Source: a virus. Taken from it: a DNA stretch of 43,046 nucleotides. The notes beneath the pieces were generated by a model. The model had not been told where the DNA came from. It saw only the letters and a program-made list of their open reading frames with translations, and made no database searches. Both the position numbers and the translations under genes were made by a program. Shown piece by piece: positions 23,809-34,237 of the stretch. Each line of letters begins with the position of its first letter. Positions within the stretch are counted from its first letter, which is position 1. Where the stretch lies: IMG/VR virus record IMGVR_UViG_3300045988_012163. One strand, 5' to 3'.

Positions 23809-23837
23809 TTGACAAACGCAACCAACACCGCTATTAT
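23809..23837 (+). promoter_or_regulatory. Rightward sigma-A-type promoter (TTGACA-17-TATTAT)
   Basis: TTGACA at 23809..23814, 17-nt spacer, TATTAT at 23832..23837. Confidence 0.65.
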
Positions 23838-23935
23838 GTAAGTGTCAGCCAACAAAATATCGGTTATAAGTCCGCAAAATGGGAAATCCGTTGGGGGCTT
23901 GGTTTTTTGTTGCCTTAATTAAGTTCTGTAAGGCT

Positions 23936-23964
23936 ATTATATTCACTATTTTAGTGAAAGTCAA
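23936..23964 (-). promoter_or_regulatory. Leftward early promoter (TTGACT-17-TATAAT) with 17-bp palindromic operator O1 filling the spacer
   Basis: Minus strand reads TTGACT (23964..23959), spacer TTCACTAAAATAGTGAA (23958..23942), TATAAT (23941..23936). Confidence 0.7.
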
Positions 23965-28444: not shown

Positions 28445-28876
28445 TCACGCGATTCTCTCAACCGTCAGGTTCGAGTTGGCGAAGTTGACGGCCTGATTGC
28501 TGGTGTTTTCCATTGCGACCGTCAGGAAGCAGCCTTTCGGGACGCAGACTTGCGCGGAAACGTAAATGTTAAAGTAGTTCCCTACCGCCGCAGGCGTGAC
28601 AGTCGCCGTTGCACTGGTCAGCGGCTCTCCGTTAATGGCAAGCGCCGCCGTGATGGCCTCAACCGTGCCTCCGGTGGGAATAGCGATGTTGCCGCCAAAG
28701 GAGACCCTAAACAGAGCGCGGTTTTGATTGGTGAGGCCGCGCAGCGTGATTTGGCCGCTTCCTTCTCTATGCACAATACACGCTTTCCCGCTTACCGCTG
28801 TAGCATCCAAAGGAACGCTTTGATTTGACGCAACAGTTACAATGTTGTTATTTACATATTCTGCCATAAATATCAT
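28445..28876 (-). CDS. BclA-C-terminal-domain / BxpB-like (TNF/C1q-fold type) protein
   Basis: About 140 aa all-beta sequence ending ...NSNLTVERIA, compared with BclA ...IIIEKVA and BxpB ...ALTVAQIS. No collagen-like repeat. Assignment is by recalled similarity only. Confidence 0.45.
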   Translation of the reverse strand: MIFMAEYVNNNIVTVASNQSVPLDATAVSGKACIVHREGSGQITLRGLTNQNRALFRVSFGGNIAIPTGGTVEAITAALAINGEPLTSATATVTPAAVGNYFNIYVSAQVCVPKGCFLTVAMENTSNQAVNFANSNLTVERIA

Positions 28877-29538
28877 TCCTTTCGTTTACAAATTCTTTTT
28901 GGCTTTTCAAATATTTCCTCGCCCGTCCATCCTCTCGAATGTCTATGATATGCAAGCGCTCTATCAAAATTAAGCAAGTCGCACCACTCGGCTATTGTCT
29001 TGGAATCCCCTTTATAAGTAACATAAACATTGTCTCGCCTGGTTCTACATTGCCATTTATTGTTTATCCAACGACAATTTTCAGGGCAATAGCCTTTTTC
29101 ATTGTCTTTTCTATCAAGCGATAAAGTTTCATTATACCCATTGGCTATCGCCCAATTATAAAAACAAGAAAAATCGTTTGCCCATTCGGAACATACCGAA
29201 ACGCCCCTACCGCCATATCTGCCGAAGTCTTTTGAACTCTGATTATTGCATCGGCATTTCATGCCATGCCATATACGATAAAGACGCGTATTTTTCATTC
29301 CGTGCGTTTTATGCTTATCTCCAGATAGTTTACCGGCCATACATCCACAACTATTTATCCTCCGGTCTTTTAACTGGTCAGAACGAACGCGAACATACTT
29401 TCCGCAATCACACTTACAAAGCCATCTTCTGGTGTCTTTGTTTATACTATATCCCTCTCGCTCATTTGCCGGAATGAAACGGACAACAGTTAAATAGTTT
29501 ATGCGCTGGCCTGTGTAATCTACTTTTGGTGTTTTCAT
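28873..29538 (-). CDS. Homing-endonuclease-like DNA-binding protein (paralog of 13774..14373)
   Basis: NTRLYRIWHGMKCRCNNQSSKDFGRYGGRGVSVCSEW and LSLDRKDNEKGYCPENCRW. Strongly AT-rich relative to the flanks. Confidence 0.5.
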   Translation of the reverse strand: MKTPKVDYTGQRINYLTVVRFIPANEREGYSINKDTRRWLCKCDCGKYVRVRSDQLKDRRINSCGCMAGKLSGDKHKTHGMKNTRLYRIWHGMKCRCNNQSSKDFGRYGGRGVSVCSEWANDFSCFYNWAIANGYNETLSLDRKDNEKGYCPENCRWINNKWQCRTRRDNVYVTYKGDSKTIAEWCDLLNFDRALAYHRHSRGWTGEEIFEKPKRICKRKE

Positions 29539-29556: not shown

Positions 29557-29584
29557 ATAATTTAATTAAGCTTAATTAAATTAT
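29557..29584. promoter_or_regulatory. 28-bp perfect palindrome ATAATTTAATTAAGCTTAATTAAATTAT (operator), plus an extra half-site at 29626..29637
   Basis: Read directly from the sequence. Lies in the divergent intergenic region between the endonuclease-like gene and the RHH gene. Candidate promoter TTGATT-17-TAAACT at 29599..29627. Confidence 0.6.
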
Positions 29585-29651
29585 ATCACACTTTTTTCTT
29601 GATTTCAAGAAATAATTGTGTTAAACTTAATTAAATTTTAGGAGGTGTGTT

Positions 29652-31944: not shown

Positions 31945-31973
31945 ATGGTCATCGTTTGGTCATTATTTGGTCA
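31945..31973. repeat. Three direct (A/T)TGGTCA repeats at 11-bp spacing
   Basis: ATGGTCA at 31945, TTGGTCA at 31956, TTGGTCA at 31967. Located in the divergent control region. Confidence 0.6.
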
Positions 31974-31994: not shown

Positions 31995-32023
31995 TTGACA
32001 TACCACGCATTGCGTGGTATTAT
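31995..32023 (+). promoter_or_regulatory. Strong rightward promoter (TTGACA-17-TGgTATTAT) overlapped by the 21-bp palindrome ATACCACGCA-T-TGCGTGGTAT
   Basis: TTGACA at 31995..32000, extended -10 TGG-TATTAT at 32015..32023, palindrome at 32000..32020. Confidence 0.7.
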
Positions 32024-32067
32024 AATCACGTAAACAAAAGAGGGCAACAGCCCAGGAGGATATAAAA

Positions 32068-32337
32068 ATGAAGCTTACCGATGGAAAGAAGACCGTGGAG
32101 ATCAAGATCCAGCGTTGGAACGGTTCCGGCTATGACCCTGATTGGAGCGCCGATTACTTTAACGCAGGCTCCCTCCCGTACGATGAAGAGACCGACACCT
32201 ACACCGTCGAAGATGTAGATTACTGCATCGAGACCGCGAACAAAACAAACGAAGACGGCGCTTGCGGCAAGTACGACGAGAACGGCGATCTTGTCCGCGA
32301 CGAAGACATGTTCGTTTTTGTCGAGGAGCTGAATTAA
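32068..32337 (+). CDS. Small strongly acidic protein (anti-defence candidate)
   Basis: AGGAGG RBS. 89 aa with runs DEETD, VEDVD and DEDMFVFVEE. Confidence 0.6.
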   Translation: MKLTDGKKTVEIKIQRWNGSGYDPDWSADYFNAGSLPYDEETDTYTVEDVDYCIETANKTNEDGACGKYDENGDLVRDEDMFVFVEELN

Positions 32338-32351
32338 AGGAGGAGTTTACC

Positions 32352-32729
32352 ATGACCGATAAGCAGTTTTACAGCATCTTTTCGGACGCGCTCTCGAACG
32401 AGGGCGCGCCCCGCGAAGCCTTTGTCTCCGATTGGGCCCTTAGTTCCATTTGGGACGACGATAATCAAGATGTTCCGGAGGAGCGTATTGCCGAGGTCGG
32501 TGGTATTTGGGATGTTGCTCATCTATCGATCTGCGACATCCGCCAGTATACGGGTCTGTCTCAGGCGAAATTTGCAACTCGCTTTTGCATCCCTCGCCGA
32601 TCTATCGAGGACTGGGAGTCCGGTGCAAGGCACTGCCCCGACTATCTGCGGTTGTTGCTTGCACAGGCCGTTGGATTGTACAACGATCGTCGGTTTTGCG
32701 GCCAGATCAATTCTCGCCATGCGGACTAA
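32352..32729 (+). CDS. HTH protein (Aca/antitoxin-like)
   Basis: AAAGGAGG RBS, start MTDKQ. C-terminal HTH ICDIRQYTGLSQAKFATRFCIPRRSIEDWESGARHCPDYL. Confidence 0.6.
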   Translation: MTDKQFYSIFSDALSNEGAPREAFVSDWALSSIWDDDNQDVPEERIAEVGGIWDVAHLSICDIRQYTGLSQAKFATRFCIPRRSIEDWESGARHCPDYLRLLLAQAVGLYNDRRFCGQINSRHAD

Positions 32730-33309
32730 AAAATGTGTAACCTGCGGCAAGATTTTTTCCACCGATCGCGCAGAGCAGGCGAAGTGCGAGGACTGCCTTG
32801 CCGCATCCCGGTCAACCACCCTGCGCACGCGAACCTGCCACACCTGCGGGGCCAACTTCATCGGAGGGCCCAGAGCCAGCTACTGCCCAACCTGTCGGGC
32901 AGAGCGGCAGAAGGCCCAGAAGCAAAAGTACCGGGCCACCGGTTTTTCCCGGCATCTGGGAGATATCGATAACTGCGTGATCTGCGGTGGAGAGTATGTC
33001 ATCCAATCTGGCTTGCAAAAGTATTGTCCAAAATGCGCCCCGGATGCCGTCCGCGAGATCGACCGCGCGCAGTCAAAAAACTGGAATACCGCACACGATT
33101 ACTACATAAAACGCCGCAAAAAATCCCGCAGCGGCGTAAAGGTCTGTGTTGTCTGCGGCCGGGAGATAGTGCCCGGTACCCCTACCGTCACCTGTTCCCC
33201 CGAGTGCGCCGCCGCCCACCGAAAAGAGGTTCAGAAACGCGCGGACGCCAAGCGCCGGAGCGGGACGAAATCAAAGCAAAACGAAGTCAAAAAAGAGAGC
33301 ACCGATTAA
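32719..33309 (+). CDS. Basic protein with four CxxC...CxxC zinc-ribbon repeats
   Basis: CVTCG..CEDC, CHTCG..CPTC, CVICG..CPKC, CVVCG..CSPEC. K/R-rich tail. Overlaps the upstream gene by 11 nt. Confidence 0.55.
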   Translation: MRTKKCVTCGKIFSTDRAEQAKCEDCLAASRSTTLRTRTCHTCGANFIGGPRASYCPTCRAERQKAQKQKYRATGFSRHLGDIDNCVICGGEYVIQSGLQKYCPKCAPDAVREIDRAQSKNWNTAHDYYIKRRKKSRSGVKVCVVCGREIVPGTPTVTCSPECAAAHRKEVQKRADAKRRSGTKSKQNEVKKESTD

Positions 33310-33551
33310 CCTCGGTGCTCTCTTTGCCCATCCGCGATTTTTTTGTATGCTCGCCTGCGGCAGCGGTTGACCGCCTCCGGCGACAGGTGCAGCGCTGCAC
33401 ACACTTGCGCGTAGCTCTTGCGCCGCACGTCGCACTCGATAATGCACGCCGCCTCGTCCTGCGGCAGCTCGAAGGATAAGATATACGCCACGGCCCGCTT
33501 GGGGGCCATAGAGGATAATTGCGCGCGGATTGACCTGTGCTGACTGTCCAT
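33306..33551 (-). CDS. Sigma-70 region-4-like small HTH protein
   Basis: 81 aa. PKRAVAYILSFELPQDEAACIIECDVRRKSYAQVCAALHLSPEAVNRCRRRAYKKI. Weak RBS. The long ORF to 33746 overlaps the endolysin gene. Confidence 0.45.
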   Translation of the reverse strand: MDSQHRSIRAQLSSMAPKRAVAYILSFELPQDEAACIIECDVRRKSYAQVCAALHLSPEAVNRCRRRAYKKIADGQREHRG

Positions 33552-33628
33552 GCCCGTGTAGGGCTTGCAGAGGCGCTTGCGCGTGGGCTTTCGCCGCCCG
33601 CTCCTTCCTGTGCCCGAATCGGACACCG

Positions 33629-34237
33629 TTATTTTGTTGCTCTCTGGATCATCGTCACGACTTCCTGCCGCGTGATAAGTCTCTGCGGCGCGCTGCCGTC
33701 CGTAATGCCAGCCGCCTTTGCCGCCGCCCAGTCCTTCGCCGCCCACGAAGAGACGGGCTTGGTGCCGAGCTGCGATAAATAGCTGTCCATCATCTTGTTA
33801 AACGTTGCCTGATCCATGTACTCCTCCATTTCCGGCGGGTACTTCCCCGCCAAGATCATGCTCCCTGTGTATCGCATATGGTCGTCCCATTGAAAATGCG
33901 GCTTGTCGGGGAATTTCTTCCAGTCGCCCCCCCACGAAAAACCGACTTGCTTGCCGATCTGCCCGCAGCGGGCGAAGAACGACGGATCGTCGTACTCATG
34001 CCCCTTGACGTTTTTGCAGATGTCGAACGCCAGCCCCGCCTTAACGCCGTGGAACGTCGGCCTTGTCGCGTTTTTCGCCGCGTAGCCCATGCGCGCAAGA
34101 TAGCGCTGATACTCGTCATCTCGCACCGTCTCCGTCACCAGAACCGGAAGCCCCGCTTCCTTGCAGAGGTCGAGGAAGATGACACAGTTTGCGCGCACGT
34201 CCGCCCGCAGGTCAGCAATGTCCCTACTGTGATACAT
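33629..34237 (-). CDS. Endolysin, peptidase M15 (VanY/LD-carboxypeptidase-like)
   Basis: Start MYHSRD at 34237. TFHGVKAGLAFDI (S/T-x-H-x-x-G-x-A-x-D type) and KPHFQWD motifs. Follows the holins. Confidence 0.75.
   Translation of the reverse strand: MYHSRDIADLRADVRANCVIFLDLCKEAGLPVLVTETVRDDEYQRYLARMGYAAKNATRPTFHGVKAGLAFDICKNVKGHEYDDPSFFARCGQIGKQVGFSWGGDWKKFPDKPHFQWDDHMRYTGSMILAGKYPPEMEEYMDQATFNKMMDSYLSQLGTKPVSSWAAKDWAAAKAAGITDGSAPQRLITRQEVVTMIQRATK

Follow-up and report, generated by a model that had tools for sequence, protein, structure and literature searches.

A likely autoregulated accessory operon of the acr-aca type, with uncharacterised cargo, in a temperate siphovirus of gut Clostridia

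We describe a cassette of three genes at positions 31,995 to 33,309 of a viral sequence of 43,046 nucleotides (IMG/VR record IMGVR_UViG_3300045988_012163), the whole of which is hereafter called the window and which is a temperate siphovirus of human-gut Oscillospiraceae-like Clostridia. The cassette codes for a small acidic protein, the product of its first open reading frame (ORF1), followed by a helix-turn-helix (HTH) protein and a basic protein with four zinc ribbons. A reading made from the letters alone (the original prediction) had likened it to the operons that combine anti-CRISPR (acr) genes with anti-CRISPR-associated (aca) ones. These are the features of the cassette:

31995..32023, plus strand: sigma-70-type promoter, with the -35 hexamer TTGACA at 31995-32000, a 17-nt spacer and the extended -10 element TGgTATTAT at 32015-32023
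32000..32020, unstranded: predicted operator, the palindrome ATACCACGCA-T-TGCGTGGTAT with perfect 10-nt arms, which fills the promoter spacer and overlaps both hexamers
32042..32053, plus strand: hairpin GGGC-AACA-GCCC in the 5' untranslated region (UTR), abutting the Shine-Dalgarno sequence AGGAGG (32054-32059)
32068..32337, plus strand: ORF1, 89 residues, isoelectric point (pI) 4.05, net charge -15.5; the exchangeable cargo slot and a candidate anti-defence effector
32352..32729, plus strand: XRE-type HTH protein, 125 residues, ATG at 32352, separated from ORF1 by 14 nt; a predicted, Aca-like autorepressor
32719..33309, plus strand: basic four-zinc-ribbon protein, 196 residues, pI 9.6; its start overlaps the HTH stop by 11 nt
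33292..33325, unstranded: perfect 14-bp stem-loop that spans the zinc-ribbon stop codon and, read on the minus strand, resembles a terminator; it marks the right-hand boundary of the swappable cassette

The promoter, the palindrome and the three proteins had all been named in the original prediction, and each can be read directly from the DNA. The promoter agrees with the consensus at 11 of 12 positions, with the extended TG in addition (its -10 hexamer, TATTAT, occupies 32018-32023), and belongs to a set of only four sites that a search for TTGACA-N17-TATAAT, allowing up to one mismatch, finds in the 43-kb window, where shuffled sequences would give 0.06. The perfect 10-1-10 palindrome that overlaps it is the single copy in the window even with three mismatches allowed (0.02 expected). 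The first protein is as acidic as had been claimed; the second adopts the XRE fold in an AlphaFold2 model and has homologues that match HTH_3; and the 16 cysteines of the third are arranged as seven CxxC motifs and one CxxxC, which make up four ribbons.

Comparison of 99 fetched loci that encode a homologue of the HTH protein (loci are denoted below by L and a number) ties this protein to the palindrome. In 79 of them TTGACA is followed by a palindrome lying in the 17-bp spacer; the distance from there to the downstream HTH gene is 353-1489 nt, and the arrangement does not depend on the cargo. The variants of this operator are symmetric: the outer half-site ACCAC/GTGGT is kept and the inner triplet is GCA/TGC, CAA/TTG or CGA/TCG on both arms, with one lineage showing ACCCC/GGGGT. 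Examination of the recognition helix revealed that the position of Asp87 in the window protein (IPRRSIE-D-WE) follows the operator: the 38 distinct protein/operator pairs with ACCAC-G have Asp there without fail, and the 17 with ACCAC-C or ACCAC-T have Asn, that is, zero exceptions over 55 pairs, which are distinct from one another while their counts are not phylogenetically independent. The rule is also true of L328, a locus that was obtained independently. Moreover, the sister phages L001 and L274 agree with the window in their flanks, -35, -10, UTR and terminator and carry a different spacer palindrome, ACGCTAATATTAGCGT, along with a different HTH. Because the position is fixed, the variants are symmetric, residue 87 co-varies with the operator, and operator and HTH are swapped together in the sister phages, we take the palindrome to be the operator of the HTH protein, and it is very likely that the protein autoregulates through it. 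The pairing of Asp87 with G and of Asn87 with C or T would represent a simple and new code between operator and recognition helix, as predicted from these alignments.

The alternative module of the sister phages occupies the genomic slot of our cassette and lies at 2070-3340 in L001, 2600-4090 in L274 and 2580-3884 in L349 (Flavonifractor phage Cormatin). Its operator is ACGCTAATATTAGCGT, frequently accompanied by another copy 5' of the -35, and its 93-residue HTH bears a four-Cys motif at the N-terminus. The cargo consists of different small acidic proteins, and L274 and Cormatin have a zinc-ribbon gene in addition. Cormatin, in which this second module carries a zinc-ribbon-like third gene, is a cultured relative, which in the OMM12 consortium is an induced F. 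plautii prophage (PMC10197239).

The gene content of the 99 HTH loci is as follows:

neither ORF1 nor the zinc-ribbon protein: 58 loci
ORF1 only: 18 loci
ORF1 and the zinc-ribbon protein: 15 loci
the zinc-ribbon protein only: 8 loci

Between the promoter and the HTH gene we found at least 10 unrelated protein families, mostly small and acidic, a count restricted to that interval since the simple gene caller used is unreliable downstream of the HTH (overlapping starts, opposite-strand genes). ORF1/F2, F5, F20, F30 and F34 have a pI of 4.1, F69 of 4.6 and F4 of 4.8, with F3, F8 and F28 near neutral. Ten families besides ORF1 were scanned and matched no Pfam family and no PHROG with a function, and a PDB sequence search with nine cargo proteins joined as one query returned no relative. 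In gene content, the HTH is the constant part of this cassette family and the cargo its interchangeable part.

In some related cassettes the slot of ORF1 holds a known anti-CRISPR. In the 41.8-kb IMG/VR phage L328, the promoter TTGACA-TACCACCAATTTGGTGGTA-TAAT, with a second operator copy 5' of the -35, precedes a first gene that codes for AcrIC5 (PF22147, E = 4.6e-24, 84.7 bits against a cut-off of 27); it is followed by an HTH 50% identical to that of the window over its full length (E = 1e-38) and then by a zinc-ribbon homologue. L351 shows the same arrangement, and in L359, L364 and L365 AcrIC5 is followed by the zinc-ribbon protein and then the HTH, so that the HTH family stands in an operon with a known Acr in all five of these loci. 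Further associations involve other operators. In L266 the promoter TTGACT-CCGCAAGCTTGCGG-TATAAT is followed by AcrIC5 (E = 8.5e-20), then by three small genes, a homologue of the zinc-ribbon protein and, last, a short HTH. In L389, L395 and L397 AcrIC5 is directly followed by the zinc-ribbon gene, and a third type of operator, CTATTTGTACAAATAG, lies in the spacer of TTGACT...TATACT about 60-90 nt before the AcrIC5 start; neither a type-A nor a type-B HTH was detected in these three loci. Likewise, L264 has an AcrIC5 gene (E = 1.9e-23) and a gene for a 189-residue protein with an N-terminal ORF1 domain, each behind a copy of a 92-nt promoter region (629-720 and 2924-3015; 85% identical) with the spacer dyad ATTACyAC...GTGGTAAT. 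This locus is a high-GC phage contig in which the two genes flank the integrase. The PF22147 model has a gathering score of 27 bits, and the proteins of L328, L266, L264 and L348 reach 65-85 bits, while ORF1 itself gives no hit. AcrIC5 inhibits type I-C CRISPR-Cas, including the Eggerthella lenta system, was found beside aca1 and has orthologues in Firmicutes and Actinobacteria (PMC7913775); small, highly acidic Acrs, AcrIC5 among them, block the DNA-binding site of the CRISPR complex (PMC10478522).

The zinc-ribbon protein of the window matched no family in Pfam, PHROG or PDB. Its family has 62 homologues, of which some match Pfam double-zinc-ribbon models, some end in an AP2 domain and one is a fusion with this HTH family. 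Its partners are type-A, type-B or short HTHs, before or after which it may lie, frequently with an 11-nt overlap. By sequence comparison it appears as a companion that recurs in acr-type loci of three operator types, a point overlooked in the original prediction. AP2-domain proteins are themselves noted companions of acr loci, including one beside the C. curtum AcrIC5 homologue (bioRxiv 10.1101/2023.05.22.541795). The possibility that the zinc-ribbon protein is an operator-specific repressor was rejected, as a 94%-identical copy stands behind the type-B operator and a different HTH in L274; it may be either an effector or an accessory nucleic-acid-binding factor. In L269 a Tad2-like gene (PF11195, Thoeris anti-defence; 6453-6687, minus strand) lies about 2.8 kb from the zinc-ribbon/HTH cassette on the opposite strand, which hints at a wider anti-defence neighbourhood.

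ORF1 has 23 Asp and Glu among its 89 residues, which places it within the strong negative charge expected of DNA-mimic inhibitors. Its family is large: close homologues number at least 199, and clustering at 50% identity (E <= 1e-3) gives 374 groups, none of them named, and the source names of the cluster members were uninformative. Conservation is centred on residues 1-58, foremost on the stretches WNGSGYDPDWSxDYF, which forms an aromatic/Asp loop, and DVDYCI; the most conserved feature is this loop rather than a general acidic surface. The AlphaFold2 model of ORF1 scores well (predicted local distance difference test, pLDDT, 96.9; predicted template modelling score, pTM, 0.83), and Foldseek searches with it gave no match in PDB (best E = 3.2, with no DNA mimic among the hits) and only uncharacterised gut-virome proteins in BFVD. 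Sequence searches recovered nothing informative from Pfam (including PF22147), PHROGs, NCBIfam or PADLOC and no relative in PDB. Some homologues lie alone behind a strong promoter of their own beside the small terminase gene; others occur in the early-gene rows of large phages or as the N-terminal domain of longer proteins. Fusions of the ORF1 domain include one with an HTH_3 domain (P0476), which resembles bifunctional Acr-Aca proteins, and two with DUF3849 (P0427, P0468), a domain for which a literature search returned no papers; additionally, the 1577-residue protein P0467 matches the ORF1 profile in nine stretches. We lean towards ORF1 being an anti-defence protein. That it is specifically a DNA-mimicking anti-CRISPR is rather unlikely, and DNA mimicry as such, raised as a possibility in the original prediction, is neither supported nor excluded by the family, the modelled structure and the fusions.

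At least 172 homologues of the HTH protein are present in the databases. The window protein itself scores 20.6 bits against Pfam HTH_3, just below the cut-off of 23, and many homologues pass. Its AlphaFold2 model (pLDDT 82) is all-helical, and the Foldseek alignments cover no more than the last ~60 residues, which match HigA2, P2 C, ImmR, the controller proteins of restriction-modification systems and HipB; Aca1 (7VJN) appears at rank 46 with E = 2.7. The N-terminal domain of 55 residues and three helices, for which Foldseek found no match, is conserved among the homologues and may mediate dimerisation. Among proteins of solved structure, those nearest in sequence are Atu1735 (2PPX) and the antitoxin HigA2, and the MqsA-family model TIGR03830 is matched weakly. 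Among the Aca families with solved structures, Aca10 (7XI5, identified as such from PMC9410881) was reached at E = 0.17 only, and Aca1 and Aca2 were not hit by sequence. As far as tested against these families, the protein would represent a previously undescribed family of Aca-like regulators.

The hairpin in the leader has counterparts in the related cassettes: a GC hairpin ending 13-18 nt before the start codon was counted in 37 of the 45 distinct UTRs from L002-L099, where shuffled sequences would yield 3.2. Its stem varies by group (GGGC/GCCC or GCCGC/GCGGC) and the loop is commonly ACA. These hairpins were counted sequence by sequence; no consensus emerged from RNAalifold when the 5' UTRs had been aligned with MAFFT, the hairpins being misaligned. 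Aca1 and Aca2 have been described as binding structured motifs in 5' UTRs (PMC13551039), and the hairpin of the cassette may be a translational-control or stability element akin to them.

The window carries terminase and portal genes at 7.5-10.1 kb, an HNH endonuclease gene at 28.9-29.5 kb, lysis genes at 33.6-35.0 kb and a tape measure protein gene at 40.9-42.5 kb, all on the minus strand, and an integrase gene at 26.4-27.4 kb on the plus strand. The cassette is a plus-strand island amid minus-strand genes, flanked by the lysis module and by the integrase side of the genome, and the neighbours towards which it converges are a sigma-70 region-4 gene and the lysin. Its own promoter, minus-strand neighbours and the 14-bp hairpin at its end agree with the independent unit convergent on the lysis module that had been proposed. 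The stem-loop is kept in the sister phage L001, whose cassette differs. The convergent neighbour codes for a 146-residue protein (33306-33746, minus strand) that is essentially sigma-70 region 4 (PF08281, E = 1.5e-7) and lies directly after the lysin; a Sigma70_r4_2 gene also adjoins the zinc-ribbon cassette in L268. Just 5' of the cassette -35 there are three direct TGGTCA repeats with an 11-nt period (31946, 31957 and 31968; stretch 31946-31973), and since these are kept in L001 with its different cassette, we assign them to the insertion slot rather than to the cassette.

The cassette is 100% identical to the matching stretch of the IMG/VR contig 3300045988_012134. An 88%-identical cassette of integrated prophages either comes last before the host smpB gene or adjoins the integrase, and in other phages the same cassette adjoins the terminase. 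Full-length HTH homologues were found in the genomes of Oscillospiraceae, Dysosmobacter and Ruminococcus and in metagenome-assembled genomes of Clostridiales, a host range that is coarse, as the genome scan returned mostly distant matches to the HTH domain only.

Two further regulatory regions were observed in the window. Upstream of the HNH endonuclease gene (28873-29538), the 28-nt perfect palindrome ATAATTTAATTAAGCTTAATTAAATTAT (29557-29584; region 29557-29608) overlaps the -10 of a near-consensus minus-strand promoter, TTGAAA-17-TATAAT, making this a second palindrome-gated promoter. Beside the integrase module, near-consensus promoters diverge at 23809-23837 (plus strand) and 23964-23936 (minus strand), with the palindrome CTTAATTAAG at 23914-23923, which has the core TTAATTAAG in common with the palindrome at 29557-29584. 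This divergent pair (23809-23964) is probably the lysis/lysogeny switch. A role of the cassette HTH as the main lysogeny repressor was rejected, given that its operator is unique in the window and that the integrase module has this separate pair of promoters.

The cassette is best compared with acr-aca operons. AcaFinder defines these as lying on one strand, with intergenic distances below 250 bp, proteins of fewer than 200 residues and an HTH protein of fewer than 150 (PMC9765179); the cassette, with proteins of 89, 125 and 196 residues on the plus strand and gaps of 14 nt and -11 nt, falls within this definition. Known acr-aca promoters have near-consensus hexamers and an inverted repeat (IR1) inside the core promoter (PMC9410906), which is what we find here. 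With the operons that contain Aca1, Aca2, Aca10 or AcrIIA1 (PMC9410906, PMC13551039, PMC9410881) the cassette has in common this core-promoter inverted repeat, the short same-strand operon, an HTH autorepressor (predicted in the present case), variable and often acidic first genes, a structured 5'-UTR element as for Aca1 and Aca2, an HTH resembling HigA2 as in Aca6, Aca9 and Aca10, and the AcrIC5 gene of homologous cassettes. It differs in that its HTH showed no sequence relationship to Aca1, Aca2 or Aca10 in searches against solved structures and has the unmatched N-terminal helical domain of 55 residues, that its cargo is not a known Acr, and that a four-zinc-ribbon gene is added. A second resemblance is to the clostridial acr loci marked by AP2 proteins, namely C. 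difficile acrIB2 and C. curtum AcrIC5 (bioRxiv 10.1101/2023.05.22.541795): the hosts are Firmicutes or gut Actinobacteria, the loci lie beside the lysis module and the lysogenic-conversion region, an AcrIC5 homologue stands beside a DNA-binding accessory protein of about 200 residues, and some members of the zinc-ribbon family have a C-terminal AP2 domain, although that of the window lacks one. The C. difficile acrIB2 locus occupies the same genomic place as our cassette, between the lysis genes and the integrase or prophage end (bioRxiv 10.1101/2023.05.22.541795). There was no C. difficile phage among the tblastn hits.

These observations suggest that the cassette is likely a self-contained, autoregulated accessory operon of the acr-aca type with uncharacterised cargo. 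The architectural part of the original prediction is supported by an operator that is fixed in position in some 80 loci and varies symmetrically, by the co-variation of residue 87 and by AcrIC5 behind the same module in L328 and L351. The part concerning ORF1 stays at the level of a proposal, this protein matching no known Acr or DNA mimic by sequence or fold. Several points weigh against the interpretation. No homologue of a known Acr was found inside the window operon in Pfam, PHROG or PDB, and none of its three proteins matched a known Acr, Aca or anti-defence family by sequence or structure in Pfam, PHROGs, NCBIfam, PADLOC or PDB. Only about 5 of 80 AcrIC5 loci carry this HTH, so that the anti-CRISPR link is guilt by association on a minority of loci; and this HTH is missing from 47 of the 78 loci that have an ORF1 homologue, which means that the pair is not obligate. 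Additionally, Aca-type regulators also control genes outside anti-defence (PMC13551039), and a position at the prophage end with a promoter of its own fits lysogenic-conversion or exclusion genes equally well.

Three other explanations were weighed, all of which we consider less likely than an acr-aca-type operon. The HTH protein could be the self-repressing antitoxin of a type II toxin-antitoxin or addiction module of the HigBA2 or MqsRA kind, with ORF1 or the zinc-ribbon protein as the toxin. It does have HigA2 and Atu1735 as its nearest solved relatives, in sequence and structure, the weak TIGR03830 match and, like HigA2, an N-terminal extension before a C-terminal XRE HTH; the palindromic operator in its own promoter is also typical of toxin-antitoxin operons, and a basic zinc-ribbon protein beside an acidic partner can be read as toxin and neutraliser. 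However, HigA2 resemblance is also reported for several genuine Aca families (Aca6, Aca9 and Aca10) and for AcrIIA1 (PMC9410906), and no gene of the cassette matched a toxin family in Pfam, NCBIfam or PADLOC. Unlike such antitoxins, the HTH has no toxin partner: its partners are many unrelated, mostly very acidic small proteins that are interchangeable and able to stand alone, yet its N-terminal domain is conserved. The zinc-ribbon protein is missing from most cassettes and pairs with three HTH/operator types, and AcrIC5 can occupy the slot. The occurrence of ORF1 homologues alone behind strong promoters, in the 47 of 78 loci noted above, together with the fusions, argues against a toxin needing the HTH and fits an autonomous inhibitor domain. 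We regard an addiction module as the least probable of the three.

The same AcrIC5 occupancy bears on the other two. A lysogenic-conversion gene or 'moron', expressed from the prophage under its own regulator and helping the lysogen by superinfection exclusion or a block on competitor phages rather than being aimed at host immunity, would account for the prophage-end site by host smpB or integrase, for the cassette's own promoter and terminator and for its strand opposite to the neighbours, and Aca-type regulators are predicted to control other conflict genes too (PMC13551039). The placement is nonetheless not specific to lysogeny, as the cassette lies beside the terminase in other phages and ORF1 homologues occur in the early regions of large phages; the cassette gave no PADLOC hit and has no membrane or enzymatic domains, and related cassettes carry AcrIC5 in the slot. 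This explanation is unlikely, while deserving the most credit of the three. Slightly less credible is a host-takeover operon, in which ORF1 would inhibit a housekeeping protein such as RNA polymerase, a nucleoid protein or the division machinery and the HTH would limit its dose. The sharply conserved aromatic/Asp loop of ORF1 suggests a specific conserved target, and its spread over 374 clusters, its presence in early-gene rows of unrelated phages and its unmatched fold would agree with this. Against it, an ORF1-domain gene has its promoter region in common with AcrIC5 in L264, ORF1 and AcrIC5 occupy the same slot under the same regulator, and the rapid turnover of unrelated small acidic proteins in that slot is a pattern typical of anti-defence loci.

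If the cassette is an operon of the acr-aca type, its working might be as follows, where we infer the repression, its timing and the activities of ORF1 and the zinc-ribbon protein. Host RNA polymerase would fire the near-consensus promoter once the DNA is available. As the HTH protein builds up, its dimer would bind the 21-bp palindrome in the promoter spacer and turn transcription off. The first position would be an exchangeable slot for inhibitors, with ORF1 most likely binding and blocking a component of host immunity, and the basic four-zinc-ribbon protein, which travels with the cassettes whatever the operator type, would serve as a second effector or a nucleic-acid-binding accessory factor. 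A more far-reaching combination can be imagined, in which ORF1 founds a large new-fold family, with at least 374 clusters at 50% identity, whose members are phage inhibitors directed against an immunity component of gut Clostridia, the zinc-ribbon protein or the HTH binds the GC hairpin by the ribosome-binding site and throttles translation, and the Asp87-G and Asn87-C/T pairs constitute a swappable code; taken as a whole, this is speculative and we consider it doubtful.

To our knowledge, the anti-defence genes of phages of strictly anaerobic gut Clostridia are almost entirely undescribed, few of them being known because there are few cultured phage-host pairs. The kind of system described here is already known, and what is new are its members, the zinc-ribbon companion and the operator/recognition-helix code. 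The HTH family and its operator are easy to recognise and would serve as a search handle, pointing to at least 10 uncharacterised small-protein families, ORF1 included, as anti-defence candidates, and the four-zinc-ribbon protein would provide a second marker of acr-type loci over three operator types. The exception-free co-variation of Asp and Asn with G and C offers a directly testable rule of DNA recognition, and Cormatin, as an inducible prophage of the OMM12 mouse consortium that bears the sister module, offers a tractable relative.

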